Source: an uncultured Syntrophobacterales bacterium (GTDB lineage: Bacteria; Desulfobacterota; Binatia; UBA9968; JAJDTQ01). Taken from it: a stretch of 64,000 nt of DNA. The position numbers and the translations under genes were made by a program. Numbering within the stretch: position 1 is the stretch's first letter; each line of letters begins with the position of its first letter. Below, piece after piece: positions 15,167 through 53,376 of this stretch. Under the pieces are notes generated by a model that made no database searches, was not told the DNA's origin, and saw nothing but the letters and a program-made list of their open reading frames with translations. Location: contig CAZFIU010000005.1 of assembly GCA_964519455.1 (NCBI GenBank), positions 3,749 through 67,748 on the forward strand. The letters are read 5' to 3'.

Positions 15167-16198
15167 TCACAGGTCGTACAGCGCCCGCGCGTTCTCCCCG
15201 GTGATCTTGGCGGCGACCGCCGGCGTCAGCCGCGGATCGTTGGCGACGCCGTCCAGGGCGAGCAGCTCGGTGGCGCTGTCGGCGTGGCCGTAGTCGGTGC
15301 CGACCACCAGGTGGTCCTCGCCGGCGGTGTCGATGACGTAGGGGAGGTCGTCGTTGGTCTCGCAGCCGATCCAGATGCGGGTCTGCGCCAGCAGGTCCTT
15401 CTTGCTGAACTCCTTGCCGGTCATGTGGTAGCGCTTGTAGAGGTCGCTCAGGGCGTAGGGGAGCCACTGGGAACCCACCTCCAGGAACGCCATCTTGAGC
15501 TTCGGGAAACGCTCCGGGATCTTGTCCATGACGATGGTGTGGAACGCGCCCACCACCACCAGCTTGAACTTCGAGAAGCCCACGGTCTCGTACTTGTAGT
15601 AGTCGTACAGCACGGGGCTGCCGTTGGAGGAGTGGATGCAGACCGGGATGTCCAGCCTCTCGGCGGCGTCGTAGACGGGATGGAAGTAGGGATCGCTCAG
15701 CAGCCGCTCGCCTTCGGAGCCGCGCATGTAGATGCCCACCGCGCCGTTCTGCTTGGCCGCCCTGGCTTCGTCGTACACCTGGCCGGTGCTCAGGAGCGGC
15801 ACCACCGCCACCCAGCGCAGGCGGTTGTCGGACTGTTTCCAGCATTCCCCCATCCAGCGGTTGTAGCTGCGGCACAGCGCCAGCTCGATCTCGGGCCGTG
15901 GCGTGAGGGGGATGATGAAGATGGTGGGGAAGATGACCTGGATGTCCACCTTCAACTCGTCCATGTGCTTGAGCCGCACTGCCACGTCCCGCAGTTCGCG
16001 GGATTCCGGCGGGGTGTCCTTGCCGACGTTCCGGGACTTGAGCCGCAGGGTGCCGTCCACCAGCCAGTACTCGTCGATTTCGCCGGCGCCGTTGAGGGAG
16101 CCGACGACGTCGGGGCGGTACTTGCGGTCGGCGCCGTCCATGAATTCCCAGGTTTCCTCGGTTTCGAGAACGTGTGCGTCGGCGTCGACTCTGAGCAT
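15167..16198 (-). CDS. amidohydrolase_2 family protein (tandem paralogue 1)
   Basis: The likely start is ATG 16198, giving MLRVDADAHVLETEETWEF. The sequence is highly similar throughout to 16316..17347. Confidence 0.8.
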   Translation of the reverse strand: MLRVDADAHVLETEETWEFMDGADRKYRPDVVGSLNGAGEIDEYWLVDGTLRLKSRNVGKDTPPESRELRDVAVRLKHMDELKVDIQVIFPTIFIIPLTPRPEIELALCRSYNRWMGECWKQSDNRLRWVAVVPLLSTGQVYDEARAAKQNGAVGIYMRGSEGERLLSDPYFHPVYDAAERLDIPVCIHSSNGSPVLYDYYKYETVGFSKFKLVVVGAFHTIVMDKIPERFPKLKMAFLEVGSQWLPYALSDLYKRYHMTGKEFSKKDLLAQTRIWIGCETNDDLPYVIDTAGEDHLVVGTDYGHADSATELLALDGVANDPRLTPAVAAKITGENARALYDL

Positions 16199-16315
16199 TT
16201 TCGTTCCTTTTCGCCTTGAAGGACTCACACCGATGGGGTTTGCAGCCCGGTTCCGGGAGGACCGAAGCCCAAGACCGCTAACTCATGAGTGCGGACGAAA
16301 CGGGGAGCAGGTCAC

Positions 16316-17347
16316 TCACAGGTTGTACAGCGCGCGAGCGTTCCCTCCGACGATCTTGGCCGCGACCTCCGGGCTCAGGCGCGGGTCGTTGGCGACGCCG
16401 TCGATGGCCAGCAGCTCGGTGGCGCTGTCGGCGTGGCCGTAGTCGGTGCCCACCACCAGGTGGTCCTCCCCGGCGTTCTCGATGACGTAGGGAAGATCGT
16501 CGGTGGTCTCGCAGCCGACCCAGATCCGGTTCCTTGCCAGCAGTTCGTTGCGGTTGAGCCCCTGCTCCTTTATGTACGGGCGTTTCTGCAGGTCGGTCAG
16601 CGCGTAGGGCAGCCACTGTGCGCTGACCTCGAGGAACCCCATCTTGAGTTTCGGGAATCGCTCGGGGATGCCGCCCGCCACGATGGTGTGGAACGCTCCC
16701 ACCACCACCAGCTTGAACTTCGAGAAGGCCACGGGCTCGTACTTGTAGTAGTCGAACAGCACGGAGCTGCCGTTGGAGGCGTGGATGCACACGGGGACGT
16801 CCAGTCTCTCGGCGGCGTCGTACACCGGGTAGAAGAAGGGGTCGTTCAGCAGCCGTTCACCCTCGGAGCCGCGCATGTAGATGCCCACCGCGCCGTTCTC
16901 CCTGGCCAGCCGGGCTTCCTCGTACACCTGCTCCGGGCTCAGCAGCGGCACCACCGCCACCCAGCGCAGGCGGTTGTCGGACTGTTTCCAGCATTCTCCC
17001 ATCCAGCGGTTGTAGCTGCGGCACAGCGCCAGCTCGATCTCGGGCCGTGGCGTCAGCGGGATGATGAAGATGGTGGGGAAGATGACCTGGATGTCCACCT
17101 TGAGCTCGTCCATGTGCCTGAGGCGGGCGGCCACGTCGCGCAGTTCCCGGGACTCCAGCGGCGTGTCCTTGCCCACGTTGCGGGTCTTGAGGCGCAGGGT
17201 GCCGTCCACCAGCCAGTACTGGTCTCCGGACCCGGAGCCGTTGGGGGAGCCCACGACCTCGGGCCGGTACTTGCGGTCGGCGCCGTCCATGAACTCCCAG
17301 GTCTCCTCGGTTTCGAGAACGTGTGCGTCGGCATCGATTCTGAGCAT
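16316..17347 (-). CDS. amidohydrolase_2 family protein (tandem paralogue 2)
   Basis: ATG 17347 follows GCGGAGGAAACCGAA and gives MLRIDADAHVLETEETWEF. The 657-aa ORF in the track is an upstream out-of-context extension. Confidence 0.8.
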   Translation of the reverse strand: MLRIDADAHVLETEETWEFMDGADRKYRPEVVGSPNGSGSGDQYWLVDGTLRLKTRNVGKDTPLESRELRDVAARLRHMDELKVDIQVIFPTIFIIPLTPRPEIELALCRSYNRWMGECWKQSDNRLRWVAVVPLLSPEQVYEEARLARENGAVGIYMRGSEGERLLNDPFFYPVYDAAERLDVPVCIHASNGSSVLFDYYKYEPVAFSKFKLVVVGAFHTIVAGGIPERFPKLKMGFLEVSAQWLPYALTDLQKRPYIKEQGLNRNELLARNRIWVGCETTDDLPYVIENAGEDHLVVGTDYGHADSATELLAIDGVANDPRLSPEVAAKIVGGNARALYNL

Positions 17348-17436
17348 TTCGGTTTCCTCCGCTAAAGGATTGGGTGGACAGAGGCCGCGATCCTCGGCCT
17401 GATATCCGTGTCCTGTATCCGAAGTCCGGAAACGAA

Positions 17437-18252
17437 TCAACGCCCCGTCCACACCGGCGGGCGCTTCTCGACAAAGGCCCGTGGCCCCTCCTTGCTGTCC
17501 TCGGTGGTGAGCACGAAAGCGGCGAGGTCCGACTCCAGCCGCAGCGCCTGGTCCAGCGGCAGGTCGACGCCCTTGTGCACCGATTCCTTGACGTAGCGCA
17601 GGGCCAGCGGCGCGCCCTTGGCGAAGGAGGCGGCCATCTCCTCGCCCGCCTGCGTCAACCCGTCCACCGCCACCAGCTTGTTGACGAGCCCGATGCGGTA
17701 CGCTTCCGCGGCGTCGATCAGGTCGCCCGAGAGGCAGATCTCCAGCGCCTTGGCCGGGCCCACGATGCGCGCCAGCCGCTGGGTGCCGCCGGACGCCGGC
17801 ATGAAACCGCGCCGCACCTCGGTGACCCCGAGCCGCGCGTTGTCCGCGGCGATGCGGACGTCGCAGGCCATGGCGATGAGCAGGCCCGCCCCCACCGTGT
17901 AGCCGTGCAGCAGCGCGATGGCGGGCTTCTGCAACAACGCAAAGGCCTCGATGGGCGAAGGGCCGCCCGGCAACTGCCTGGCCTGACGCGCCTCCAGCGG
18001 CGACGCCTGCGCCTCGGCCGGGACGGCGTTGCGTTGCGCGCGCTCCTTCAGGTCCCCGCCCACGGTGAAGGCCTTCTCCCCCGCCCCCCGGACCAGCACC
18101 ACCTGCACGCCCCGGTCCGCCTGCGCCCGGGCGCACATCCCGACGATGCCGAGGCGCATCTCTTCGTCGATGGCGTTCAGCGCCTCCGGGCGGTTGAGGG
18201 TGATCCAGGCGGTCTGTCCCTTTACTTCGTAGAGAACCTTGTCGTCGCTCAT
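17437..18252 (-). CDS. enoyl-CoA hydratase/isomerase (crotonase) family protein
   Basis: ATG 18252 lies 8 nt after GGAGG. MSDDKVLYEVKGQTAWITLNRPEALNAI and the ..GAGEKAFTVGGDLKE.. oxyanion region are present. Confidence 0.85.
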   Translation of the reverse strand: MSDDKVLYEVKGQTAWITLNRPEALNAIDEEMRLGIVGMCARAQADRGVQVVLVRGAGEKAFTVGGDLKERAQRNAVPAEAQASPLEARQARQLPGGPSPIEAFALLQKPAIALLHGYTVGAGLLIAMACDVRIAADNARLGVTEVRRGFMPASGGTQRLARIVGPAKALEICLSGDLIDAAEAYRIGLVNKLVAVDGLTQAGEEMAASFAKGAPLALRYVKESVHKGVDLPLDQALRLESDLAAFVLTTEDSKEGPRAFVEKRPPVWTGR

Positions 18253-18284
18253 TCGCGTAGCCTCCATGACGTAGCCTCGCATCC

Positions 18285-18420
18285 GTCATTCCCGCTCTCT
18301 TCCGTCATAGCCGCGGAACAGGCTGTGTCAAATGGAATCCCGCTACACCCCAATGAGTCATTCCCGCGAAAGCTTGCCCTCGACCCCGATCGGGGGCGGG
18401 AATCCAGGGGTCGGGAGGGG
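18285..18420. repeat. family-A repeat with nested AAGCTTGCCC..GGGGGC insert
   Basis: GTCATTCCCGCGAAAGCTTGCCCTCGACCCCGATCGGGGGCGGGAATCCAGG. The same insert is seen at 22592-22651. Confidence 0.8.
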
Positions 18421-18453
18421 CCAGCCCGGGGAGCGGGAGTCCACGGGCGATGC

Positions 18454-19464
18454 TCAAGCCGCCCTGTCGAGCCGGTAGACCCCTACGGCCGTGTCGTGGA
18501 ACAGCGCCTTCCGCTCCGCCTCGGAGCACCCCCGTGCCACGATCTTGAACGAGTTCCACACGGCAACATAGGAATAAGATACCCGGTCCACCGGGAAGTT
18601 GCTTTCGAACATGCAGCGGTCGGCGCCGAACTTCTCGATGCAAAACTCGAAGTACGGCCGCATGGCCTCCGCCAGTTCGGCGGAACCGGGCCGGGACTCG
18701 CGCGTGTGCCAGTCGTAGCCCGAGCGCAGTGAACCGACGCCGCCCAGCTTGAGTGTCACGTTGGCGCATTCGGACAGCGCGGCGATGTCGGTGCTCCAGG
18801 CCCGGAACACCTCGTCGCGCCGTCCCTCGTAGGGGCCGAGGCCCAGCGGTCCGCCGATGTGGTCGAGGATGATGGGCAGGTCCGGGAAGTCCCGCGCCAA
18901 CTCCACCAGCTCCGGGAGCTGCGGGTGGTAGAGCCAGGCGTCGAAGCTCAGCCCGTAGCGCCGCAGGCACCCCACGCCCCTGCGCACCGCGGCGTCCCGC
19001 AGCAAGCCGGGCCGCTCCACGCTCCGGAACGCGTCCGAGGCGTCCCACATGGTGGAATAGCGGATGCCGCGCAGCCGGGTGGGGCCGGCCTCCAGGTGGG
19101 CTTCGAGGACCGCGGCCACGCCGTCGCCCAGGGCCAGGTCGGCATAGGCCACGATGGCCGCCGCCACCACGGCGGGGTTGTCCGCGCGCGCGTTCCCGGC
19201 CGCGATGCCCTCCAGGAACTCCGTCTCCCCCACCGGCCGCAACTCCGGCGGCCCGGTCTCCCGGTACATGGCGCCGCACTCCACGGCCACGCTGGAGACG
19301 ACGCGATGGCCGCCGGTGGCGTCGCGCAGGAAGTCGTTCAGCAGATAGGGGTTGGCCGGACGCCGCCACAGGTGATGGTGCGGGTCGCAGATGGGGAGGT
19401 CGGGCCGCAGGGGTGTTTCGTCGGTTAGGTCGGTTGTCGGATGGGTCACGTTCGTAGCCCTCAA
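18454..19464 (-). CDS. amidohydrolase_2 family protein
   Basis: The protein is 336 aa. ICDPHHHLW carries the N-terminal HxH metal motif. The start codon is uncertain: TTG 19464 or GTG 19449. Confidence 0.75.
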   Translation of the reverse strand: MRATNVTHPTTDLTDETPLRPDLPICDPHHHLWRRPANPYLLNDFLRDATGGHRVVSSVAVECGAMYRETGPPELRPVGETEFLEGIAAGNARADNPAVVAAAIVAYADLALGDGVAAVLEAHLEAGPTRLRGIRYSTMWDASDAFRSVERPGLLRDAAVRRGVGCLRRYGLSFDAWLYHPQLPELVELARDFPDLPIILDHIGGPLGLGPYEGRRDEVFRAWSTDIAALSECANVTLKLGGVGSLRSGYDWHTRESRPGSAELAEAMRPYFEFCIEKFGADRCMFESNFPVDRVSYSYVAVWNSFKIVARGCSEAERKALFHDTAVGVYRLDRAA

Positions 19465-19625: not shown

Positions 19626-20408
19626 TCATGCCGACATGTTCTCATTCAGGAAGCGTGTGATTCGCTCGCGGTTCGCCGTAAGGCTGGAAAACTGCTTTTC
19701 GCATACGTCACTGAAGCGTGCCAGCACTTTACGATTGATGGACTCCTGATCTTCAAAGATGGCCAGGGACCGGAACGGGAGTCCCCACTTCTCGAACTGG
19801 AGCAAAGCGATCGTGGCATCACGTGTCCTGCCGTCACTGGTGAGCCCGTGAACAAAAAATGGCCTGGAAGTCCCATTGATACGGCAATCTACCGGGTACA
19901 TTCCACTGGGATCGTGCTCGGGATCGCTCCAATCGAAGGTCCGGCGCTCCTCGGGGGCCGCCTCGCTCAGCAAATGGCGAAAATCGTCCATGAAGGTGGA
20001 CCGAGCGCGCTCTCGCGACAGAAAGGAGACGTCGGTGATCTTGAGCAGTCCCTGAACAAAAGAATACAGTGCGTCCCCGTAACGTTCCTCGGGGACTTCG
20101 AGTACTAGCTCGCCGTCGTGATCCTCAATTCCAAAAGTAGACAGGGAGTTGGAGATGATTGTCTGACGGGTTCCTCGATGCAGATCTTTCTCGTCGATGT
20201 CGTAGGTCAGGTGCATATAAGTGTGCGCCTCGTCGGAGAGCACCCACCGCGTACCCTCTTTCTTCAGGACGATGGCCAAGTGATCCCCGTCTTCGAACAA
20301 GAATGGCGTGAATACTCGGAAACGGTTGATGCCTTCCGCCGACAGCCGGATCTTCTGCGACACTTTCTGGTGGAAATCCTGTTCTATGGTTTCAATTGGC
20401 ATCGCCAT
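19626..20408 (-). CDS. hypothetical protein, possibly DUF1828/DUF1829-type
   Basis: The protein is 260 aa and the region is visibly lower in GC than its flanks. [35 protein letters not shown] resembles what I recall of DUF1828, but this memory is unverified. Confidence 0.6.
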
Positions 20409-20883
20409 CCTCCTCGAAGAGGTCGCCTTGTCGTTCGACCGGCACGTCGAAGATCGCGTCCGCTAGTAGGCAGCGAAGGGCGTCGTAGAGGGTGCCGTAA
20501 CGATCCGTCGGCTCGGCGTAGGCGTCCTCCCGCGTGCCGATCTCCTGATACCGCTCTGTCGCATGGTGAATGTGAAAGTCGTAGAATGACTCACCTTCGA
20601 TGTGGTTGGTGTGTTCGTGACTCCTGCCGTTGTAACGGCAGAGCCGAAATACCTGATTCGAGCGCGGGACGAGTACGGCAAGAATGACGGAGAAGTCCAG
20701 GGCGTTGATGCTGCTTTCCCTGAGAATGACGCGGAATTCGCTTCCGGCGTCGCCGGTGACATCTAGATGCTGCTCTAGGTGACCGCGCTTGGACACCATC
20801 CGCGTACGTCGTCGCCAGTCTGCCGGCAAGGGCTTGCGTTCTCGTAGAAGCGACTCGATCTCTTGATCGGTGTATGTCACCAC
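20392..20883 (-). CDS. hypothetical protein with His-rich motif
   Basis: The protein is 163 aa with a GTG start. It overlaps the downstream gene by 17 nt. It carries the motif [32 protein letters not shown] recognised no family. Confidence 0.6.
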
Positions 20884-21262
20884 TATCGTTTACTCCGATG
20901 TGTCGGGCGAGTCACCGCCTTGCCGGATCCGCGCGATAGAGAATCCCGTAGATTGTACCTCATGCTCCTTTGAAACGAAATTTCCTTAGGTGTACCGACG
21001 GCCGCGCAGGTTTCTCATACGACGGTCTGTCCTTTAAGTCGATGTGGGAGTTGACCGGACGCGAGTGGGGGTCCGGCGCGTGCGGCCTCTCACAGGCCCT
21101 TCAACCCGGACGCCGGGTTTTCTGATAGCAGTCGGGCGACACTTCCCGGCTTTGATCGATCTTAGGAGACGCCATCGTTTCCGATGCTCGCACTGCGCCG
21201 CCGGGTTTGGTAGACAGGGATTGCCGCGAATCCGATACCCGTCCACACGCCGAGGAGGTCAC

Positions 21263-22516
21263 GTGGATTTCGAGCTGGCCCACTACCCTGTCCGGTCCCT
21301 TTCCTGGGGCGCCCACACCGAGTATCGGGAAGGCGAACTCGTTGTCAACCAGGAGGCGTTGCGCGCCGAGGTGCTCACGGAGCCGCTCATCGCCGACGTG
21401 GAGTTGAGCATCGTGCGGCCGGGGGAGCGCGCGAGGGTGCTGCACGTGGCGGACATCGTCGAGCCGCGCTGGAAGGAGGGCGCCTTCGGCGGGGCGTTCC
21501 CCGGGAGCCTCGGGGCGCTGTCCCAGTGCGGTGCGGGTCGCACCCATGCGCTGGACGGCGTGGCGGTGGTGACGTCCGGGTCGCTGCCGCGGTCGGAGGA
21601 GGCCGTCATCGACATGTGCGGCCCGGGCAGCGAGCTGAGCCGCTTCGGGCGCATGCCGGGGCTGGTGGTGGTGCCCAGGGCGCGGGAAGATGCCGATCCG
21701 GGCCAGTTCGGCCTGGCGCTCATGCGCGCGGGGCTGCGCGCGGCGGTGTTCCTGGCGGAGACCACGAAGCGCGCGGCGCCGGCGCGCACGGAAGCGTTCT
21801 CGCTCGACTGGCGCCGGCCTGCTTCGGGTCTGCCGCGCATCGGTTATCTCAGCTTCGCCTACTCCCACGGCATCGGCCGCCAGAAGCTCTTCTACGGCAC
21901 CAGCACCAAGGACATCGTACCGAGCATCGTCCACCCCAACGAGATCCTGGACGGCGCGCTGGTGAACGACGGCTATACCAAGCCCACCAAGAACGCCACC
22001 CACGACATCCTGAACCATCCCCTGATCCGGGACCTGTACCGGCGGCACAACGACACCCTGGTGTTCGCCGGCATGGTGCTGGCGAACCACTACGCCACCT
22101 ATGACGAGAAGGCGGCCGCGGCCTTTCACGCGGCGCGGCTGCTCAGGCACGTGGTGGAGGCGGACGGCGTGGTCATCACCAAGGACGGCGGCGGGCAGGC
22201 GGACGTGGACCTGATGCTGGCCTGCCGGGCGTGCGAGGAGGCGGGGCTGCGCACGGTGCTGGTGGCCAAGGAGGAGTCCGGCGGCGACGGCCCGGCGCTG
22301 GTGGACGTGGCGCCCCAGGCGGACGCCATGGTGAGCGTGGGCAACTGTCCCGAGAAGGTGCGGCTGGAGGGACCCATGGGGCGGGTCCTCGGCGGCGACG
22401 CGTTCCTCGGGGCAATCCAGGGCGACGTGGCCGGGACGGTGGAGATTCCGGTGCAGAACATCATCGGCGCCATCGACCCCATCGGCGGCTCGACGCTGAC
22501 GGCCCGACCGGGATAA
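21263..22516 (+). CDS. grdE: glycine/sarcosine/betaine reductase component B alpha/beta proprotein-like (GrdE-like)
   Basis: GTG 21263 lies 4-5 nt after GAGGAGG. MDFELAHYPVRSL... and IVHPNEILDGALV...NHPLIRDLYRRH resemble the GrdE/GrdG/GrdI family. The gene sits immediately upstream of the GrdB-like gene. Confidence 0.7.
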   Translation: MDFELAHYPVRSLSWGAHTEYREGELVVNQEALRAEVLTEPLIADVELSIVRPGERARVLHVADIVEPRWKEGAFGGAFPGSLGALSQCGAGRTHALDGVAVVTSGSLPRSEEAVIDMCGPGSELSRFGRMPGLVVVPRAREDADPGQFGLALMRAGLRAAVFLAETTKRAAPARTEAFSLDWRRPASGLPRIGYLSFAYSHGIGRQKLFYGTSTKDIVPSIVHPNEILDGALVNDGYTKPTKNATHDILNHPLIRDLYRRHNDTLVFAGMVLANHYATYDEKAAAAFHAARLLRHVVEADGVVITKDGGGQADVDLMLACRACEEAGLRTVLVAKEESGGDGPALVDVAPQADAMVSVGNCPEKVRLEGPMGRVLGGDAFLGAIQGDVAGTVEIPVQNIIGAIDPIGGSTLTARPG

Positions 22517-22570
22517 ACGGGCTTACCATGGAGGCAACACAGGATTGTCGGACACCGCCGTACACGAAAC

Positions 22571-22771
22571 GTCATTCCCGCCCCACAATACGTCATTCCC
22601 GCGAAAGCTTGCCCCCGACCCCGATCGGGGGCAAGCTTTCGCGGGAATGACGTATTCGTAACGTTTTCGCCTGGAGTGTTTTGACACAACCTGTTTCGCG
22701 GGAATGACGTTTCAAGGGGTTGTTGCCTCTCTTGAATCGAGTTTTGGTACAGCCTGTCCTGCCGGAATGAC
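22571..22771. repeat. family-A repeat cluster including a 60-nt perfect hairpin (22592-22651)
   Basis: GTCATTCCCGCGAAAGCTTGCCCCCGA-ccccga-TCGGGGGCAAGCTTTCGCGGGAATGAC has a 27-bp perfect stem. It is followed by two ..CCTGT(T/C)..GGAATGAC tail units. Confidence 0.9.
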
Positions 22772-22834
22772 GATTTTGGACGTGGGCGGGCCGGTTGGGT
22801 GACAGGGAGGCAACCGAGGCTCAGGGAGGACCCC

Positions 22835-24124
22835 ATGAAGCGCATCGTCCACTACGTGAACCAGTTCTTCGCCGGCCTCGGCGGCGAGGAGAGCGCGGGT
22901 ACGCCGCCGGGCGCCCTGGACGGCGCGGTCGGGCCAGGGAGGCTGCTGCAATCGCTCCTGGGCGAAGGCGCCGCCATCGTCACCACCGTTTACTGCGGCG
23001 ACGACCACTTCTCGGAGAACGAGGAGGAGGCCACGGCGCGGCTGCTTGAACTGGTGAAGCAGGCGGAGCCGGATCTGCTGTTCGCCGGGCCGGCCTTCGG
23101 CTCGGGGCGCTACGGTCTGGCGTGCGCGGGGGTGTGCCGGGCGGTGGGCGCCGAGTCGGGCATCCCGGTGCTGACCGCCATGGCGCCGTCCAACCCCGGT
23201 GCCGATGCGATCCGGCGCGACATCCCGGTGGTGGAAACCGGGGAGTTCTCCGGCGACATGCGCGCCGCCATCGGGGCCTCGGCCCCGCTGATCGTGAAGC
23301 TTCTCACCGGCGAAATCGTCGCTCCGGGCGGCGAGGAGGGGCTGCTGCCGCGCGGTGGGCGCTGGAACACGCGGGCGGCCCGGCCGGCGGCCGAGCGTGC
23401 CGTGGACCTGCTGCTGGCGAAGCTCGCGGGTGGGCCGATGGAGACGGAGATCCCGCTGCCGCCCTTTCAGGAGGTGGCGGCGGCGCCGGGGATCGGCGAT
23501 CTCGGGCACGCGAAGATCGCGCTGGTCACCACCGGCGGCCTGGTGCCGCGGGGCAATCCCGACGGCATCAAGTCGTACCTGTCCACCCACTTCGGCGCCT
23601 ACCACGTGAAGGAACACGAGCGGCTCACGGGGGATGAGTTCGAGTCGGTGCACGGCGGCTTCTTCACCGCCATGGTGAACGAGGACCCCAACCGGCTGAT
23701 CCCCCTGGACGTGCTGCGCGACGCGGTGCGCGAGGGCTCCCTGGGCGGGCTGCACGAATATTTCTACTCCACCACGGGCAACGGTACGCCGGTGGAGACC
23801 GCCGCCGACATGGCGCGGGACATCGCGGCGTCGCTGGAGGAGGACAAGGTCGACGGCGTCATACTCACTTCCGCCTGAGGGACCTGCACTCGCTGCGGCG
23901 CGGCGATGGCAAAGGAACTGGAAAGAGCCGGCATCCCCACGGTGCACGTGACCAATCTCGTGTCGGTGTCGGAGAACACGGGCGCCAAGCGGATCATGTC
24001 GGGGCGGGCGATCCCCCACGTCTTCGGGGACCCGTCCCTCGACGCGGACGAGGAGCGCCGGCTACGGCGGCGGCTTGTGGAGCAGGCGCTGGACATGCTC
24101 CGGGAGCAGGAGAGTGGGTCGTGA
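22835..24124 (+). CDS. grdB: glycine/sarcosine/betaine reductase selenoprotein B-like (GrdB-like), with in-frame TGA at 23876-23878 read as selenocysteine
   Basis: ATG 22835 follows AGGGAGGA and gives MKRIVHYVNQFFAGLGGEE. ORFs 22799..23878 and 23906..24124 are in the same frame, separated only by the TGA. The context is VILTSA-TGA-GTCTRCGAAMAKELERAGIPTVHV, which matches the GrdB U-x2-C-x2-C motif. Confidence 0.8.
23885..23911 (+). promoter_or_regulatory. candidate bacterial SECIS hairpin, starting 7 nt after the UGA
   Basis: I folded UGCACUCGCUGC-GGC-GCGGCGAUGGCA by hand. It forms about 12 bp with two single-nucleotide bulges and a G-rich apical loop. Confidence 0.45.
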
Positions 24125-24301: not shown

Positions 24302-25345
24302 ATGTTTAGGCGAATACTCTTTCTGATGGCAGGGTTGATGCTGCTGACGAGCCCTGCGTGGGGCGACGCGGTGGCGGATTTCTACAAGGGCAAGCAGCTC
24401 CGTATTGTCGTGGGTTATGGTCCGGGCGGCACCACCGACCTCACCACCCGGCTCGTCGCCCCGGTGCTGCACAAGTACATTCCCGGCAGTCCCCGGATCG
24501 TGGTCCAGAACAAGGCGGGCGGCGGCAGCGCGCTGGCGGCCAACACGGTGTTCAACAACGAGCGCCGGGACGGCACGGTAATGGCGGCCATCAGCAGCAG
24601 CCTCGTGATGAAGCAGGCTCGCGGCGTGGCGGGGATCAAGTTCGACGGCAGGAAGTTCAACTGGGTCGCGAGCGCGTTCCGGGCCAACTCCGCCTGCGCG
24701 GTGCGGCTGGATTCGGGCGTCAAGACTTTCGCCGAGGCGGTGAAGACCAAGAAACAGCTCATCGTGTCGAGCTTCGACAAGGGCGGCCTGTCCCACCTGG
24801 AGCCGATCTTTTTCAACGCGATCTTCGGCAGCAACTTCAAGGCCGTCACGGGATTCCCCAGCGGCGGCGCGCAGCGTCTGGCGGTGAAGAACGGCGAGGT
24901 CAACGGCTTCTGCACGACGTTCCAGACCATGGCCAGCACGGAGATCGCCATGTTCGAGGGCGAGGGCAGGTGCTGCCGGGTGCTGATCATCGCCGGCGAG
25001 GGGGAGGACCACCCGCTGCTGAAGGGCGTGCCCGCGGCCGAGGTGCTCGCCAAGGAGCAGGGCAAGAGCAAGGATGAGATCGCCATGCTGAAGGCGATGA
25101 ACGCCGCCAACCAGATCAGCATCGTCCACACGCTGCCGCCGGGAGTGCCGAAAGACCGTGTCGAGGCCCTGCGCGACGCCTTTGCCAAGGCGTACAACGA
25201 CCCGCAGGTCCAGGCGCTGGCCAAGAAGCAGAACCGCAATCTGCAGCCCAGGCGGGGCGACGGCGTGGCCAAGATCGTCGAGGATCTGCTCAACACTCCC
25301 GAGCCCCTCATGGACAGGATCAAGGCCCTCATCGACAAGGGCTAA
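24302..25345 (+). CDS. tctC: tripartite tricarboxylate transporter substrate-binding protein (Bug/TctC family)
   Basis: It has a signal peptide MFRRILFLMAGLMLLTSPAWG. VVGYGPGGTTDLTTRLVAPVL...VVQNKAGGGSALAAN is the family-typical N-terminal motif. Confidence 0.8.
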   Translation: MFRRILFLMAGLMLLTSPAWGDAVADFYKGKQLRIVVGYGPGGTTDLTTRLVAPVLHKYIPGSPRIVVQNKAGGGSALAANTVFNNERRDGTVMAAISSSLVMKQARGVAGIKFDGRKFNWVASAFRANSACAVRLDSGVKTFAEAVKTKKQLIVSSFDKGGLSHLEPIFFNAIFGSNFKAVTGFPSGGAQRLAVKNGEVNGFCTTFQTMASTEIAMFEGEGRCCRVLIIAGEGEDHPLLKGVPAAEVLAKEQGKSKDEIAMLKAMNAANQISIVHTLPPGVPKDRVEALRDAFAKAYNDPQVQALAKKQNRNLQPRRGDGVAKIVEDLLNTPEPLMDRIKALIDKG

Positions 25346-25504: not shown

Positions 25505-27001
25505 ATGTTGGAAGCCTTCATCACGGGACTGCTCCAGGTATTCGATCAGACCACGTTCCTGCTGATGGTGATCGGCATCTTCCTGGGGTTCGTCGTCGGG
25601 ATCCTGCCCGGCATCGGCAGCCCCGGGGCGGTGGCTCTCATGCTGCCGTTCATCTTCGAGATGGACCCGGTGCAGGCGTTTGCGTTCCTGCTCGGGATGT
25701 ACGCGGTCACCGGCACCACCGGCGACATCACCTCGATCCTGTTCGGCGTGCCCGGCGAGGTGGTGTCCACGGCCACCATCATCGACGGCCATCCCATGGC
25801 CAAGAAGGGCGAGGCCGGCCGCGCCCTGGGCGCGGCGCTCATGAGCTCCCTGGTGGGCGCCATCGTCGGCGCGTTCTCCCTGGCGTTGGCCATCCCCATC
25901 GTCACCCCGCTGGTGCTGTCCTTCAAGTCGCCGGAGTTCTTCTCCCTGGCGATCCTGGGGATCTGCTTTCTCGCGGCGCTGAGCGGCGACAACAAGCTCA
26001 AGGGGGTGCTGGCGGGCGGTTTGGGGCTCGTGCTGTCCACCGTCGGCCTCGATTACCAGGAGAACATCGAACGCTATACCTTCGGCCTCGTGCACCTGTG
26101 GGAAGGGGTCGGCCTCATCGCCGCGGCCGTGGGGCTGTTCGCGGTGCCGGAGATCGTGGAGCTGTGGGTCAAGGGCTCGGCCATCGCGGATACCAAGGTG
26201 GGCAAGCTGGGCGGCGTGTGGCAGGGGGTCAAGGACACCTTCATCCACATCGGCCTCACCGTGCGCTGCAGCATGATAGGCACCTTCTTCGGCCTCGTCC
26301 CCGGCGTGAGCGCCGCCCTGTCCCAGTGGGTGTCCTACGCCCACGCGGTGCAGAGCACCCGGGACCGCAGCGGCTTCGGCAAGGGCGACGTGCGCGGCGT
26401 CCTGGGGCCGGGCGCGGCCAACAACTCCGGCATCGGCGCCGCCATGATCCCGACGGTGGCCTTCGGAGTGCCGGGAAGCGCCACCACCGCCATCCTGCTG
26501 GGAGCCTTCATCATCCAGGGGCTTCAGCCGGGGCCGAAGATGCTCACGGAGCATCTGGCCCTGACCTTCTCGTTCGTCTGGCTCATCGTCATCTCGAACA
26601 TCATCACCGTGGCGCTGTGCCTGATGTTCCTGAAACACTTGGCGAAGATCACCCAGGTCCGCGGCTCGCTGTTGATTCCGTCGCTGTTCATGCTCATCTT
26701 CCTGGCGGGTTTCGCCAACACCGGTTCCTACTTCGCCATGGCCACCACCCTGGTGTTCGGTGTGATGGGCGTGATCATGGTGAACCACGGCTGGCCGCGC
26801 CCGCCGCTGGTGTTGGGGCTGGTGCTCGGGTCCCTGGTGGAGCGGAACCTGTTCATTTCCTACGAGATCTACGGCCTCTGGTTCCTGACGCGTCCCATCG
26901 TCATGGTGACCTTCGGTGTCGCCCTGGTCGTGATCTTCCTGCCCGGGTTGCAGGATTGGATGGCGAAGCGGGCCAAGCTCCAGGAGGAGCCGGGTGCGTA
27001 A
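25505..27001 (+). CDS. tctA: tripartite tricarboxylate transporter large permease (TctA family)
   Basis: The protein is 498 aa and polytopic. GILPGIGSPGAVALMLP and the overall layout are typical of TctA. Confidence 0.8.
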   Translation: MLEAFITGLLQVFDQTTFLLMVIGIFLGFVVGILPGIGSPGAVALMLPFIFEMDPVQAFAFLLGMYAVTGTTGDITSILFGVPGEVVSTATIIDGHPMAKKGEAGRALGAALMSSLVGAIVGAFSLALAIPIVTPLVLSFKSPEFFSLAILGICFLAALSGDNKLKGVLAGGLGLVLSTVGLDYQENIERYTFGLVHLWEGVGLIAAAVGLFAVPEIVELWVKGSAIADTKVGKLGGVWQGVKDTFIHIGLTVRCSMIGTFFGLVPGVSAALSQWVSYAHAVQSTRDRSGFGKGDVRGVLGPGAANNSGIGAAMIPTVAFGVPGSATTAILLGAFIIQGLQPGPKMLTEHLALTFSFVWLIVISNIITVALCLMFLKHLAKITQVRGSLLIPSLFMLIFLAGFANTGSYFAMATTLVFGVMGVIMVNHGWPRPPLVLGLVLGSLVERNLFISYEIYGLWFLTRPIVMVTFGVALVVIFLPGLQDWMAKRAKLQEEPGA

Positions 27002-27539
27002 CCGGACGGATATCGGCATCGGCGTGCTGCTGGTGACGCTTCTCTCCTGGGCGGTGTGGGAGGCGCAGGGGTGGCCGGCGCGCACGAGGTTCTTCCCCCT
27101 GGCCATCGGCTATCCGGTGCTGGCCATGGCGGTGATGCACCTGGCCTACAGCTTGTGGCTCGGGCTGCGCCCCCTCGGGTTCGAGCAGGGTCCGGCCGCG
27201 CCGGACCCACTGGCGGAAGCCGGGCCGATTCTCGATCCCGCGGTGGTGCGCAAACGCACGCTCGAGATCTCGTTCTGGGCCGTCGCCTTCGCGGTGGGGC
27301 TGTACCTGCTGGGGTTCAAGGTGGGCGGGCTGGTCATCCCGACGGTCTTCCTCCACTACCAGGCGCGCGAGACCTGGTGCACCAGCCTCTTGTACAGTCT
27401 GGGCGTTTACGTCTTCTTCAAGATCGGCCTGGAAGAGGCGCTGTCGTTTCCCCTGCCCGCCGGCCAGATCGCCTACGGCCTCGGGCTCTACTCCTTCGAT
27501 TCCTACCTGATGGATCCGGTCCTGAACCTGTTCCGGTAA
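26994..27539 (+). CDS. tctB: tripartite tricarboxylate transporter small membrane subunit (TctB-like)
   Basis: The protein is 181 aa with about 4 TM segments and a GTG start that overlaps the tctA stop by 8 nt. The call is by context. Confidence 0.6.
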   Translation: MRNRTDIGIGVLLVTLLSWAVWEAQGWPARTRFFPLAIGYPVLAMAVMHLAYSLWLGLRPLGFEQGPAAPDPLAEAGPILDPAVVRKRTLEISFWAVAFAVGLYLLGFKVGGLVIPTVFLHYQARETWCTSLLYSLGVYVFFKIGLEEALSFPLPAGQIAYGLGLYSFDSYLMDPVLNLFR

Positions 27540-38650: not shown

Positions 38651-38794
38651 GGCGTTAAGTCGTGTATCTAACACAGTATTTCAGGATAGGCGAATACGTG
38701 GGTGATGTCGTTGCCGGGAGGCGCCGGACGGACGCGCGATCCGGCCGGATAGGATATAATGGTCCCGGCGATCGAGACGCTGGAGTCCTTCCTG

Positions 38795-40162
38795 ATGTAC
38801 CGCATGGATACCATCGCGGCCGTGGCGACGCCCCCTGGCGAAGGGGGAGTGGCCATGGTGCGTTTGAGCGGACCGGATGCCAAGCGCATCGGACGGGAGA
38901 TCCTTGTGCGAAAGGACACCGACTGGGAATCGCACCGCCTGTATCACGGGAGGGTGCGGAACCCCGGCAGCGGCGCTGTGGTGGACGAGGTGATGTTTGC
39001 CTTCCTGCGGGAGCCCAGGAGCTATACTGGGGAGGACACCGTCGAGATCCATTGCCACGGGGGCCCTTACGTGGTGCGCCAGGTGCTCGGTCTGACGCTC
39101 GCGCGGGGCGCGCGGCACGCGGAGCCCGGTGAATTCACCAAGAGAGCCTACTTGAATGGTCGGTTGGATTTGGCCCAGGCCGAGGCGGTGCTGGATCTGA
39201 TCCGGTCACGCACCGACAAGGCGGCCGGGATCGCCCTTGGCCAAATGGACGGCGGCCTTTCGCAGGAGGTTCAGGCTCTTCGCGAACAACTGGTGGACAC
39301 GCTCGTACAGGTAGAGGCAGCCATCGACTTCCCCGAGGAAGAGATCGAGCTGCTGCAGCGCGAGGCGTTGAGCCGGCAGGTCGCGGAGGTGGTCGAGAGG
39401 GTCTCCGCCCTCGCCGGCAGTTACGAATGGGGCCGGTTGATCCGCGAGGGAGTCCGCGTGTGCATGGTGGGTCGGCCCAACGTCGGCAAGTCGAGCCTGC
39501 TGAACGCGCTGTTGGGGGTCGACCGGGCCATCGTCACCTCCACGCCGGGGACCACCCGTGACTTCATCGAAGAGACCGCGAACCTCAATGGCTTGCCCGT
39601 GGTGCTGTGGGACACGGCGGGAATCCGGGACAGGACCGAGGGCGTGGAGCAGATCGGCATCGACGTCACTCTGAGGAGGCTCGCCGAGAGCCAGGGATGC
39701 ATGGTGGTCCTCGACGGGTCGGTGCCGCTTACGGCCGAAGACATGGACGTGATGGAGCGGGTGCAAGGGATGGCGGGTCTCGTGGTTGTCAACAAGTCCG
39801 ACCTGGAACAGCGCATCGAGCGTTCGGCGGTGTCCGGCCGTTTGCCCGAACTGCGGCAGGTTGAAGTATCGGCTTTGATGGGACAAGGCTTGGAGACTCT
39901 GAGGGGCGCATTGCGAGAGTGTTTTATGGATTCGGCGGAGGAACCGGAGATCGTTGTGACCAATGTGCGCCACAAGGCGGCCTTGGAGCGAGCCACGGCG
40001 AGTCTTGTGGAGGTGCATCGCGCCCTCGACCAAGGGCTGCCGCCCGACATCGTGGCGGTAGACCTGCAGGAGGCACGGGACAGTCTCGAGGAGATCATAG
40101 GTACCGTGACCAATGAGGATATCCTCGACCGCATTTTTTCGCAATTCTGCATCGGCAAGTAG
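38795..40162 (+). CDS. mnmE: tRNA modification GTPase MnmE
   Basis: M(YR)MDTIAAVATPPGEGGVAMVRLSG, the G-domain motif GRPNVGKSSLLN and the C-terminal FCIGK are present. The start is 38795 or 38804. Confidence 0.9.
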   Translation: MYRMDTIAAVATPPGEGGVAMVRLSGPDAKRIGREILVRKDTDWESHRLYHGRVRNPGSGAVVDEVMFAFLREPRSYTGEDTVEIHCHGGPYVVRQVLGLTLARGARHAEPGEFTKRAYLNGRLDLAQAEAVLDLIRSRTDKAAGIALGQMDGGLSQEVQALREQLVDTLVQVEAAIDFPEEEIELLQREALSRQVAEVVERVSALAGSYEWGRLIREGVRVCMVGRPNVGKSSLLNALLGVDRAIVTSTPGTTRDFIEETANLNGLPVVLWDTAGIRDRTEGVEQIGIDVTLRRLAESQGCMVVLDGSVPLTAEDMDVMERVQGMAGLVVVNKSDLEQRIERSAVSGRLPELRQVEVSALMGQGLETLRGALRECFMDSAEEPEIVVTNVRHKAALERATASLVEVHRALDQGLPPDIVAVDLQEARDSLEEIIGTVTNEDILDRIFSQFCIGK

Positions 40163-40211
40163 GTGTCGGTGGGTTGGTTCGTGGAAGGCGGACCGGTAAT
40201 CTGCCACAATC

Positions 40212-42134
40212 ATGGCTCAAGCTCTTCAGCAAAGGATGTTTCACGTGAAACAATCGGACCGGGGGACCGGCAGGATCTACGATGTCATCGTGGTGGGCGC
40301 CGGGCACGCAGGCATTGAGGCGGCCCTGGCGGCCGCGCGCATGGGTTTCGACACGTTGATGTTGACGCTCAACCTGGACCATATCGGCCAGATGTCCTGC
40401 AACCCGGCCATCGGAGGCATCGGAAAGGGCCATTTGGTCAAGGAAATCGATGCGCTTGGCGGCGAAATGGCCCGGGCCATCGACGAGACCGGCATCCAGT
40501 TTCGCGTGCTGAACACCAAGAAGGGGCCGGCGGTTCGGGCATCCCGCGCCCAGGCGGACAAGGCGCTCTACCGCCAGAGGATGAAACGGGTCGTGGAGCG
40601 GTGTGAGAACCTCACCCTCAAGCAGGCCAGCGTGGAAGCGCTCGCCTGCCGCGGTGGCGAAGTCGTGGGGGTCGAGACCGAGATGGGAGAGGTGTTTGAA
40701 GGCAAGAAGACGATACTGACGACCGGTACCTTCCTGCAAGGTCTGATCCACGTCGGCGACCGCAACTATTCGGCGGGTCGAGCCGGGGATTTCGCCGCGC
40801 AGGGCCTGAGCAAGTCCTTGAGCGAGCTCGGTCTGCGGTTGGGGCGCCTCAAGACCGGCACTTGTCCCCGTTTGCACGCCGATTCCATTGACTACTCCAA
40901 GCTGGATGTTCAGTACGGGGACGAACACCCCGTGCCGTTTTCGTTCGGCACGGAGCGGATAGAGCAGAAACAGATCCCCTGCCACATTACCTATACCAAC
41001 CCGACGACTCATGACGTCATCCGAGGGGCCATCCACCGCTCGCCCATGTATTCGGGAGTGATTCAGAGTCGGGGACCGCGCTACTGTCCCTCCATCGAGG
41101 ACAAGGTCGTACGGTTCGCTGAAAAGCAGCGCCACCAGATCTTCCTGGAACCCGAGGGGTACGAAACGGTCGAGGTCTATCCCAACGGTATCTCCACGAG
41201 CCTCCCGCTCGACATCCAGGTGGAGATGGTGCACAGCATCCAAGGCCTTGAAAATGCTGAGATCATGCGGCCGGGTTACGCCATCGAGTACGACTACGTG
41301 GAGCCCACGCAACTCAAGCCGAGCCTCGAGACCAAGGCCATCGGGGGATTGTATCTGGCGGGTCAGATCAACGGGACCACCGGATACGAGGAGGCCGCGG
41401 GCCAAGGTCTTATGGCGGCCATCAACGCGTGTCTCAGCCTCAGGGGCGAAGACCCGCTCATTCTCTCACGTGACCAGGCGTACATAGGCGTCCTGATCGA
41501 CGACCTGGTCACCAAGGGCACGGACGGCGAGCCCTACCGGATGTTCACTTCCAGGGCCGAATACCGGCTGCTGCTCCGGGAGGACAACGCGGACCTTCGG
41601 CTCGCCGAAGTGGGTTTTCGTATCGGTTTGGCCACTCCGGCGGCCCATGATCGTACGGTCCGGAAGCAGCAACAGATCGCCGAGTGGACCAGGAAGCTGG
41701 AAACCATCCGCGTCAATCCGTCGCCCACCGTCCAGGCACAACTGGAGGCCTTGCGGACCGCACCCATTCGCAACATCACGCCGCTGGCCCAACTGCTCCG
41801 TCGTCCCGAGCTCACGTTCGTGGATCTTCAGGCCTTCTGCCCTGATGTGACGGAGGTGCCGTCCGATGTGGCCCTGCAGGTGGAAGTATCAATAAAATAC
41901 AGCGGTTACGTGGATCGGCAGACACAGGGACTGAAGCGGTTCCAGAAGATGGAGAACGTGGCCCTTCCGGAGGACCTCGATTACGGAACCATCGACGGGT
42001 TGTCGGGCGAGATCAAGGAAAAGCTCACGCGCGTGCGACCACGCTCCCTGGGCCAGGCCTACAGGATCTCGGGGGTGACCCCGGCCGCCATCTCGGTGCT
42101 CTCGCTGTACCTCTACAAGTGGAAGGCGGGTTGA
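40212..42134 (+). CDS. mnmG: tRNA uridine 5-carboxymethylaminomethyl modification enzyme MnmG (GidA)
   Basis: [23 protein letters not shown] is the FAD motif and the protein is 640 aa. The start is 40212 or 40236. Confidence 0.9.
40237..40252. other. parS centromere-like site (inside the first codons of mnmG)
   Basis: TGTTTCACGTGAAACA is a perfect 16-bp palindrome and matches the tGTTNCACGTGAAACa consensus. Confidence 0.8.
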
Positions 42135-42264
42135 GGGAAAGCCTGACGGCACCAGTAGGCTCATGCGAACAGGCTTACCAGTCAGGGAGGGGCATCCTGG
42201 TTTTCGGAAGGGCGCGATGACGAGCAGCGGCGGGTATGATGTCTGAAACCAGGTGTTGTGACCG

Positions 42265-42930
42265 GTGCCTCGCAAAGACCTCTTCAACGACGAGCAACTG
42301 CTGATCGAAGGCGCTAGATCCTTCGATCTGGTCTTGTCTCCTCAACAGATCGCGGCCTTTGCGAGCTACCGATCGCTCCTTTCCGTCTGGGGCGCCCGCC
42401 TCAACCTCACCGCGATCCGTGAAGTCCCGCTCGTCGTGCGGCTGCATTTCCTGGACTCTCTTTCGGTCGTGCCCCTCTTGAGTCGCGCCGATGCACTCAT
42501 GGACATCGGCAGCGGAGCGGGTTTCCCTGGAATCCCCATAAAGCTTGTCTCTCCGGAGAAACCGGTCTATCTGGTCGAACCGCGACGAAAACGAGCGAAC
42601 TTCCTGCGGCACGTCATTCGCGAGCTCGACTTGGCGAATACCCACGTGATCGAGGGTCGTGTCGAGGACTTGCCGACCGCAGGCCTCCCCCCGATGATGG
42701 AAACCGTCACCCGCGGGTTCTCCGACATCCCGGGGTTCGTCAAGGCAAGCGGCGAACTCCTCGGTCCGGGCGGTTCAGGCGTTCTCATGCAGGGCCCCAA
42801 GGGACCGGTCGTATTGGATGAACTTCGAGGGTGCTTCTCGCATTATGGGTTCGCGGAAGGTCGCACGGTGCAGTTCCCCCTCCCTTTCGGAGGCGAGCAA
42901 AGGACAGTGCTCACTTTCAAGAAGGTCTAG
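42265..42930 (+). CDS. rsmG: 16S rRNA (guanine527-N7)-methyltransferase RsmG (GidB)
   Basis: ..LNLTAIREVPLVVRLHFLDSL.. and the SAM motif DIGSGAGFPGIP are present. The position after mnmG fits. Confidence 0.85.
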   Translation: MPRKDLFNDEQLLIEGARSFDLVLSPQQIAAFASYRSLLSVWGARLNLTAIREVPLVVRLHFLDSLSVVPLLSRADALMDIGSGAGFPGIPIKLVSPEKPVYLVEPRRKRANFLRHVIRELDLANTHVIEGRVEDLPTAGLPPMMETVTRGFSDIPGFVKASGELLGPGGSGVLMQGPKGPVVLDELRGCFSHYGFAEGRTVQFPLPFGGEQRTVLTFKKV

Positions 42931-43039
42931 TGTGGTGTCTGGTTAATTCGCGGCATAATCCGCGGGTCTTTTTCGCCGTCGGCCGCGTTACGTCACCCCG
43001 GGCTTGACGCGGGGTCTTCCTCGCGTGGTGCCCGCAACG

Positions 43040-43135
43040 GGGGCGACCGCGGGTCGCCCCTACCGGCCTGGACAGGTCGGCGCTCTTCGACAGGCTCAGG
43101 CCAGGCTTCGCGAAACGAACCCGAAGGACGTAACC
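43040..43135. repeat. GC-rich hairpin plus family-B-like repeat
   Basis: GGGGCGACC-gcg-GGTCGCCCC forms a hairpin at 43040-43060. It is followed by CTCTTCGACAGGCTCAGGCCAGGCTTCGCGAAACGAACCCGAAGGACG. Confidence 0.55.
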
Positions 43136-43159
43136 ATGTTTCGCGGGTTCAGGGTTCGG

Positions 43160-43175
43160 TGTTTCACGTGAAACA
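43160..43175. other. parS centromere-like site upstream of parA
   Basis: TGTTTCACGTGAAACA is identical to the site at 40237 and lies 85 nt upstream of the parA start. Confidence 0.8.
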
Positions 43176-43260
43176 TGCGTGAGGCTTCCCTTCGAAGCCC
43201 TGGCGTGTTACAAGATTGGAATAGCCTCCCTTGCCTCAACTTGTTGAATATTAAAGAGTT

Positions 43261-44046
43261 TTGGGAAAGATAATCGCCATAGCCAATCAGAAGGGCGGTG
43301 TCGGGAAGACCACCACCGCCGTGAATCTCGGCGCGTCCCTGGCGGTCGCCAGCAAACGTACGCTCCTGGTGGACATGGACCCACAAAGCAACAGCACCAC
43401 GGGTTTCGGGATCGACCGGGACGCTCTCAACAAGAGCATCTACGACGTGATGCTCGAGGACTGTTTTGCCACCGAGGCCCTGTGCGCGACAGAGTTGCCC
43501 CTCCTGTTCCTCCTGCCGGCCAACCGTGACCTCGTTAGCGCCGAATTGCGGCTGATGGATATGGAGAACCGCGTCGGAAGGCTCCGGGACGCCCTGGAGA
43601 CGGTCAAGCACCGGTTCGACTATATACTTCTGGATTGCCCGCCCTCCCTGGGTTTGCTCACTCTCAACGCTCTCGTCGCCGCGGATTCGCTGCTGGTACC
43701 GCTACAGTGCGAGTACTACGCGCTTGAAGGTCTCAGCGCGATTCTTGATACGATGAAACGTGTGCAGGATGCATACAATCCGGATTTGAAGCTCGAAGGG
43801 GTCGTTCTCTGCATGTACGATGCCCGCAGCAACCTGTCCGCGCAGGTGGCGGAGGATGTCCGCGGCCATTTTCCGGAACAAGTGTTTCGAAATGTCATTC
43901 CCAGAAACGTCCGCCTGAGCGAAAGCCCCAGCCACGGCAGGCCCGCCCTGCTGTACGACCCCAGGTCCAAGGGGGCACAGGGCTACCTGGGCCTTGCGGC
44001 CGAAGTAATGGACCGTCAGAAGGAGTCCACGCATGCAGAAGCCTAG
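43261..44046 (+). CDS. parA: chromosome partitioning ATPase ParA (Soj)
   Basis: It starts at [31 protein letters not shown] contains the deviant Walker A motif. Confidence 0.9.
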
Positions 44047-48729: not shown

Positions 48730-48818
48730 CGCCGAACCGGGAAGCCGGCCGCGCCGCGGTGACGCGACCGAACGAGGTCGCTCCACGGGCAACCGAGAGG
48801 ACGTCAGGTCTATAACCG

Positions 48819-49355: not shown

Positions 49356-49385
49356 AATCACCAAAACAGTCCAAGGGAGCCAGTC

Positions 49386-50894
<1,509 letters not shown>

Positions 50895-50898
50895 GTAG

Positions 50899-51756: not shown

Positions 51757-51846
51757 CGCGAGGATATGGGCCTCGAGCCCACCCGCGTGACTCGTGGAAA
51801 CGAAGGACGCAGGATACCAGGGAAACGGCGGACGGTCCGCCTTTGA

Positions 51847-53376
<1,530 letters not shown>

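Follow-up and report, generated by a model that had tools for sequence, protein, structure and literature searches.

The 64-kb window considered here (the whole stretch of 64,000 nucleotides that was analysed; contig CAZFIU010000005.1 of assembly GCA_964519455.1) raises the question of whether two open reading frames (ORFs), separated by an in-frame TGA at positions 23876-23878, together encode a single selenoprotein, and of which kind of reductase such a protein would form part. In the ORF list, ORF 22799..23878 (GTG start, 359 amino acids) stops at this TGA, and ORF 23906..24124 lies in the same frame. A first-pass annotation had read the two as one protein of about 429 residues, with selenocysteine (Sec) at about codon 348, and translation of bases 22835-24124 agrees with it: the frame comprises 429 codons, its sole internal stop is codon 348, and 81 codons remain after the TGA. 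The context of the stop is ...DKVDGVILTSA-stop-GTCTRCGAAMAKELERAGIPTVHVTNLVS... or, in a longer form, ...EDKVDGVILTSA-stop-GTCTRCGAAMAKELERAGIPT..., and the motif at this site is TSA-U-GTCTRCG (U-x2-C-x2-C). ATG 22835 is the likely start codon of the gene, because a Shine-Dalgarno sequence (GGGAGG, 22824-22829) is located 5 nt upstream and because the homologues of the protein begin with MKRIVHYVNQFF, matching this start. The reading in which a Candidatus Binatia host makes a single selenoprotein of 429 residues from bases 22835-24124, a member of the selenoprotein B family that would form a reductase module together with a GrdE-like partner, is assigned a probability of roughly 0.85.

Homologous loci were obtained by scanning a genome collection, which gave 80 loci, 79 of them readable at the TGA codon. 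The homologous codon was TGA in all 79 loci, which come from several phyla and include 19 Binatia orthologues, and in each of them the frame ran on for 81 to about 97 codons past the TGA. In addition, a natural homologue, P0062, carries Cys exactly at the Sec position. Two checks proposed with the earlier annotation were thereby run, and both attempts at refutation failed: the TGA is aligned with the Sec/Cys position of the GrdB homologues, and the orthologues do not end at this codon with unrelated sequence behind it. The sequence downstream of the TGA is conserved as protein across the homologues. Among the Binatia orthologues (n = 19), 320 of the 372 nucleotide differences within the first 70 codons after the TGA (86%) fall on codon position 3, and the nine codons between the TGA and ATG 23906 vary synonymously while their amino acids are kept. 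In an AlphaFold model of P0062 (mean predicted local distance difference test score 82), the Sec/Cys residue lies in a strand-loop-helix turn, and the portion of this alpha/beta domain that is encoded after it comprises two more strands and three helices, so that a product truncated at the TGA would be predicted to lack part of the fold. The conservation of the codon and of the sequence behind it argues that UGA 23876-23878 is a genuine selenocysteine codon.

The first-pass annotation had folded a stem-loop by hand at 23885-23911 and recommended a search for a selenocysteine insertion sequence (SECIS) downstream of the TGA. Such a search returned the Rfam family SECIS_4 (RF01990) with a score of 40 bits, the gathering score being 38, and an E-value of 9.6e-6 for the whole window; no other Rfam family was found in the entire 64 kb. 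The stem of the Rfam match lies close to the hand-folded one (23890-23896 paired with 23900-23906, a GGC loop at 23897-23899, and outer pairs 23883-84 with 23908-09). Its distance from the UGA, 11 nt, is what the SECIS of E. coli fdhF requires. Over 80 aligned homologous sites, 91% of the cells were standard pairs, five of the nine pairs changed on both sides, and none of 500 shuffles reached the observed covariation score. The most informative pair joins the synonymous third base of an Arg codon to the first base of the facing Thr/Ala/Ser codon; 34 sequences have UA there, 17 have CG and 2 have AU, and none leaves the two bases unpaired. SECIS_4 was also matched in all seven Binatia orthologous loci scanned, with scores of 47-49 bits. 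As a separate observation from outside the Binatia, some GrdB-like selenoproteins (loci L061, L070, L072, L040 and L078, from Dehalococcoidia, Udaeobacter, Chloroflexota and Methylomirabilota) read U-G-T-S/G-T-R-S-G, with both C-x2-C cysteines replaced, as reported for FarB, and the Cys-to-Ser change (TGC to AGC) in these loci is compensated in the SECIS stem by a change from GCA to GCT.

Were translation instead to end at the TGA, as a true stop codon or through a nonsense mutation, a 347-residue protein would result and the downstream ORF would be a pseudogene remnant or a separate small protein. Gene callers do read it in this way, and an ATG is present at 23906, but the persistence of TGA and frame in 79 loci, the strong third-position bias after the TGA, the amino acid conservation of the nine codons before that ATG, the covariation of the SECIS and a downstream segment that, in the model, would complete the domain fold effectively refute this reading, which we regard as scarcely credible. 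The idea that TGA has been reassigned throughout the organism, for instance to Trp or Gly, could draw on database entries with W at this codon, yet these "full-length" entries arose when gene calling misread the TGA as Trp in clostridial homologues that are known as selenoproteins. TGA is the commonest stop codon in the window, terminating 23 of the 43 confidently called ordinary genes, and TGG occurs 191 times, a normal usage, which argues against genome-wide reassignment; moreover, no other gene in the window contains an in-frame TGA. When in-frame TGA codons having a third-position GC content above 0.85 on either side were sought across the window, only TGA 23876-23878 and one ordinary gene junction came up, and no further selenoprotein genes were detected in the 64 kb by the Rfam and in-frame TGA scans. 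The organism follows the standard genetic code, with recoding at a specific site, and reassignment is the least probable of all the readings considered.

Family searches were performed with the read-through protein, in which Cys was substituted for the stop. The protein matched Pfam GRDB (PF07355) at 1e-125 (419.9 bits) and NCBIfam TIGR01918 at 492.4 bits against a cut-off of 65.45, the latter match covering residues 3-423 and thus spanning the TGA. These matches to sequence models show that it belongs, over its full length, to the glycine/sarcosine/betaine/D-proline reductase selenoprotein B family. The scores were lower than the cut-offs of the more specific models, namely GrdB (TIGR01917; 449.3 bits against an equivalog cut-off of 602.2), GrdF (NF040794; 484.6 against 800) and GrdH (NF040795; 425.6 against 775), and the model for PrdB (TIGR04483; 76.5 against 300) covered only the C-terminal half. 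Among the control loci, real GrdB loci scored 697-820 bits on the GrdB model (L020 with 697 and L036 with 820), and L057 reached 828 bits on the GrdH model. Of the original description as a GrdB-like selenoprotein, membership in the selenoprotein B family therefore stands, and an identity as GrdB, GrdF or GrdH proper does not; judged by these cut-offs, the protein is not an equivalog of any of the three. Sequence searches of the PDB with the GrdB-like and GrdE-like proteins gave no match, and a fold search of the PDB with the P0062 model gave nothing at E<=0.001, with TM-scores of about 0.2; by these searches, no solved structure exists for any member of the GrdB or GrdE family.

The gene upstream of grdB encodes the GrdE-like partner subunit. 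It starts with GTG 21263, preceded by the ribosome-binding site GAGGAGG, whereas the mechanically called ORF starts at 21044. Its product scores far under the NCBIfam cut-offs for GrdG, FarE and PrdA (150 bits against 675 for the FarE model NF053623), and its Binatia orthologues are 417-418 amino acids long. In classic GrdE, the segment ...DGAIVSGNCVSACDKN... (SGNCVSACDKN) contains the cysteines that give rise to the pyruvoyl group. The corresponding Binatia segment, ...DGALVNDGYTKPTKNATHD..., has no cysteine anywhere between the flanking conserved motifs in 20 of 20 proteins, so both processing cysteines are missing throughout, and the segment HPNEILDGALVNDGYTKPTKNATHDILNHP at the processing site is invariant among the 20 Binatia sequences except for one I/L position. 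The partner encoded at the bona fide GrdH locus L057 likewise lacks the processing cysteines. It has been reported that FarE, like the betaine reductase subunit GrdI, is without these cysteines and hence is not a proprotein (PMC10838667). From its sequence, the GrdE-like subunit is predicted to be incapable of forming a pyruvoyl group.

The order grdE-like, grdB-like, tctC, tctA, tctB was kept in all 19 Binatia loci, so that in each of them the grdE-like gene lies upstream and the tctC-like gene downstream of grdB. The tct genes encode a tripartite tricarboxylate transporter (TTT), and the best solved relatives of the tctC-like protein are TTT binding proteins, such as the terephthalate-binding protein 8hka (E 3e-11). 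None of the 60 non-Binatia loci contained a TTT transporter. In five of the Binatia loci (L012, L014, L016, L017 and L018), a second tctC-like paralogue (63-66% identical), which is not present in the window, was located right after tctB, at about 14.7-16.1 kb.

In the mechanism proposed for this module, the SECIS 11 nt downstream of the UGA would direct Sec insertion through SelB carrying Sec-tRNA(Sec), as in established bacterial Sec decoding. The GrdB-like protein and the adjacent GrdE-like subunit would together form a substrate-specific reductase module of the "protein B" type, for which the co-oriented TctCAB transporter probably imports the substrate. By homology, the selenolate of Sec348 would attack the carbon alpha to the carboxylate and displace the leaving group, and the two cysteines of the U-x2-C-x2-C motif would take part in, or protect, the redox cycle. 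The chances are about even that the resulting carboxymethyl-type intermediate is passed to GrdA and GrdCD whose genes would lie at another place in the genome; its direct release by thiols is an alternative to which a somewhat smaller chance is given. As the partner lacks the pyruvoyl-forming cysteines, the enzyme should not use Schiff-base activation, which glycine and sarcosine need (PMC10838667). The substrate is thus expected to need no Schiff base, which makes glycine or sarcosine unlikely and favours a carboxylate whose leaving group is intrinsically good, by analogy with the betaine reductase GrdHI or the fluoroacetate reductase FarEB.

Several observations weigh against this overall reading. 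The window SECIS exceeds the gathering score of its model by just 2 bits, which is attributable to a U-G wobble (23894/23902) unique to the window, and the hairpin does not surpass shuffled sequence in folding energy (z = -0.08), as expected at 70% GC; stability was accordingly dropped as evidence and support was taken from covariation. The first-pass annotation's expectation that the genome should encode selA, selB, selC and selD is reasonable, but none of these genes was seen and no tRNA-Sec was found with ARAGORN in the 64-kb window or the 19 Binatia loci, to which this search was confined. Similarly, grdA, grdC, grdD, grdX, trxA and trxB were absent from the window, even at E<=1, and from the 10 kb around the gene in the 19 Binatia loci, GrdA having been searched for by its C-x-x-U motif and by tblastn; such genes would supply the partners for electron transfer and product release. 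Since the GrdB-like protein remains below every characterised equivalog cut-off, any substrate named for it is a guess, and TTT transporters are not known as the customary uptake route for betaines.

Two other accounts of the enzyme were compared with these data. Under the classical scheme for GrdB (or GrdF), a pyruvoyl-containing GrdE binds glycine, and GrdA and GrdCD make acetyl phosphate, as in Stickland clostridia. The protein does belong to the same family, carries the identical U-x2-C-x2-C motif and obtains its top scores among the specific models from GrdF and GrdB, but these scores fall well short both of the respective cut-offs and of the range of real GrdB loci, and the partner lacks both pyruvoyl-forming cysteines. 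Furthermore, grdA/C/D/X or trx genes lie beside grdB in about 40 of the 60 non-Binatia loci and not near it here, and an aerobic, methylotrophic way of life is predicted for the host lineage (PMC8262859), all of which renders the classical scheme very unlikely. A stand-alone two-subunit reductase would dispense with GrdA and GrdCD: the neighbouring cysteines would resolve the selenoether and release the reduced carboxylate, and a general thiol system would reduce the Se-S bond. An analogous proposal exists for the D-proline reductase PrdAB, the C-x2-C cysteines are retained, and an aerobic host would have little need for the conservation of acetyl phosphate. The absence of A and C components within 10 kb of the gene extends over 19 Binatia genomes, several of them closed, and among the homologues listed there is one GrdB-type match per Binatia chromosome, where a lone module would normally share one operon with grdA and grdCD. 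On the other hand, grdC is adjacent in L077 and L040, the closest relatives by the tree, and L077 has grdA there too; a shared A/C system commonly lies at a distance from the substrate-specific B modules (PMC10838667); and the search for A and C components covered the window and the Binatia loci. The stand-alone scheme is considered possible but less likely than not.

Textbooks place Grd-type enzymes in anaerobic Stickland fermentation. The Binatia clade, which is well conserved, departs from this picture in its non-pyruvoyl partner, its link to a TTT transporter, the lack of nearby A and C components and the predicted aerobic host. Together, these traits point to an as yet uncharacterised substrate and perhaps to a simplified mechanism. 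In its most far-reaching form, which we consider unlikely, the module would be a self-sufficient, two-subunit, non-pyruvoyl selenoenzyme of predicted aerobic methylotrophs that acts independently of GrdA and GrdCD and reductively cleaves a TTT-imported carboxylate with a good leaving group, for example a quaternary-ammonium compound of the betaine type. If this were true, methylated amines would be released for methylotrophy, and the module would represent a new functional variant of the Grd/Prd family outside anaerobic fermentation.

The 19 closest loci (80-97% amino acid identity) all derive from metagenome-assembled genomes labelled Candidatus Binatia or carrying older deltaproteobacterial names for the same group, several of which are closed chromosomes of 4-5.7 Mb; the next-best relatives share no more than 51% identity. 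The Binatia GrdB-like sequences formed one long-branched clade in a neighbour-joining tree; its neighbours, to which it is only loosely joined, come from Gaiellaceae, Methylomirabilota and Chloroflexota, and it is separate from the clostridial GrdB group and from the GrdH group. When the GrdC of the nearest outgroup locus (L077) was used as a query, the best 120 matches were all Gaiellaceae-like. The truncation at 23878 that the first-pass annotation had foreseen for automatic gene calling is indeed found in public data: homologues are stored as proteins of 346-347 amino acids with a separate ORF of 72-76 amino acids downstream, the Binatia copies being unnamed fragments of 346-347 amino acids, and the exact window protein is present in the Logan assemblies SRR8304772 and SRR8304770, called as ORFs of 347 and 72 amino acids. 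Within the literature collection searched, no paper linked Binatia or Binatota to glycine reductase or selenoproteins, and the words "glycine", "betaine" and "seleno" do not occur in the main Binatota genomics survey. The gene is thus of a kind that is already known and is routinely truncated in annotation, here in an uncharacterised Binatia sub-lineage and an unusual neighbourhood. With the gene annotated correctly, selenium dependence would be recognised in an uncultured lineage of global distribution.

Features of the reductase locus and its surroundings (positions in the 64-kb window)
Feature	Position	Strand	Basis and remarks
grdE-like gene, protein B partner subunit	21263..22516	+	Pfam Gly_reductase PF09338, 8e-98; 417 aa
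grdB-like gene, predicted selenoprotein	22835..24124	+	429 codons, Sec at codon 348; family matches, homologues, conserved TGA
UGA, predicted selenocysteine codon	23876..23878	+	TGA in 79/79 loci; Cys in P0062
Predicted SECIS element	23879..23916	+	Rfam SECIS_4 RF01990; covariation
tctC-like gene, periplasmic solute-binding protein (TTT transporter)	24302..25345	+	weak Pfam TctC match; signal peptide
tctA, large TTT membrane subunit	25505..27001	+	Pfam TctA, 2e-120; conserved order
tctB-like gene, small membrane subunit	26994..27539	+	weak Pfam TctB match; conserved order; 8-nt overlap with tctA
Three Amidohydro_2 genes	15167-16228, 16316-17365, 18454-19464	-	family matches
Enoyl-CoA hydratase gene	17437-18282	-	family match
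REP-like palindromic repeat cluster	22563..22775		fills the 318-nt grdE-like/grdB-like gap; perfect hairpin with 32-nt arms, 22587-22656

The minus-strand genes at 15167..19464 are divergent from the reductase genes and largely conserved; a homologue of the Amidohydro_2 gene at 18454-19464 was present in 18 of the 19 Binatia loci. The intervening interval includes a lower-GC segment of about 1.5 kb (19626-21040), located between the divergent amidohydrolase and the grdE-like gene and inserted relative to the other Binatia loci, which may be a small mobile or defence cassette; on its minus strand it has a DUF1828 gene (19626-20408) and, next to that, an ORF of 163 amino acids (20392-20883). No riboswitch or other regulatory RNA was found upstream of the reductase genes at Rfam gathering thresholds, and promoter and terminator scans returned no more sites than in shuffled sequence. 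Farther along, at 38759-44896 and 47765-53376, the window contains mnmE, mnmG, rsmG, parA and parB, followed by an F-type ATP synthase operon, a gene content that places it near the chromosomal replication origin region; the cumulative GC skew climbs steadily across the window. On one Binatia chromosome (L003), a match to the group II intron family D1-D4 (RF02003, 54.8 bits) was located at 17460-17642, about 6 kb downstream of the reductase cluster.

The spacing between the grdE-like and grdB-like genes is 9-11 nt in 11 of the 19 Binatia loci and 318 nt in the window, where a cluster of repeats resembling repetitive extragenic palindromic (REP) elements has expanded the spacer from about 9 nt; a comparable gap of 328 nt exists in L001. 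The repeat unit is CCTGGATTCCCGCTTYCGCGGGAATGAC, and 20 copies of its core, GCGGGAATGAC, are present in the 64 kb, between genes where checked; apart from this cluster, the repeat is located at 1877, 5937, 7811/7887, 11114/11193/11271, 18295/18357, 24189, 33321/33397 and 53880-54092. We take the repeat to resemble the Neisseria dRS3 class (ATTCCC-N8-GGGAAT). The exact 25-mer was found in at least 120 metagenome contigs (719 kb in total), whose GC content spans 33-72%, indicating that the repeat is not lineage-specific; neither tRNA-Sec nor SelA/SelD motifs nor GrdA/C/D were detected in these at least 120 contigs.

Of the characterised systems, the betaine reductase GrdH/GrdI of the Eubacterium acidaminophilum type shares with the Binatia locus a two-gene B module in which Sec lies in T-S-x-U-G-T-C-T-R-C-G and is followed by a SECIS, an adjacent transporter gene, as is usual for substrate-specific B modules, and a partner without processing cysteines, for which neither a pyruvoyl group nor a Schiff base would be expected. 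It differs in that the Binatia protein reaches 426 bits against the GrdH cut-off of 775 and occupies a separate long branch in the tree, that the Binatia partner is only about 30% identical to GrdI-type partners, that the transporter is of the TTT type rather than a betaine/choline/carnitine transporter (BCCT) or OpuD, that grdA/C/D are not nearby, and that the host belongs to the Binatia and not to the firmicutes. With GrdB/GrdE, the module has in common the Pfam family and TIGR subfamily, the length, the position of Sec and the C-x2-C cysteines, at an identity of about 45-50%; in contrast to that system, it falls below the equivalog cut-off, has a partner without a pyruvoyl-forming cysteine and lies outside any grdX-trxB-trxA-grdE-grdA-grdB-grdC-grdD operon such as that of L036.

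The fluoroacetate reductase FarEB of Cloacibacillus porcorum (PMC10838667) likewise combines a GrdE-like subunit, which is no proprotein, with a GrdB-like one and is encoded beside a dedicated transporter, FarEB itself being located away from grdA and grdCD. However, FarB lacks the C-x2-C cysteines that the Binatia protein keeps, the Binatia partner scores 150 bits on the FarE model against the required 675, no radical-SAM gene is present, and a TTT transporter takes the place of the major facilitator superfamily (MFS) antiporter. PrdA/PrdB belongs to the same superfamily and also has a Sec-containing B subunit, but the PrdB model matches at 76 bits against 300 and over the C-terminal half only, and PrdA is a pyruvoyl proprotein, unlike the Binatia partner. 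The D-proline reductase PrdAB works without GrdA or GrdCD, and in this respect it is a possible functional analogy for the Binatia module.

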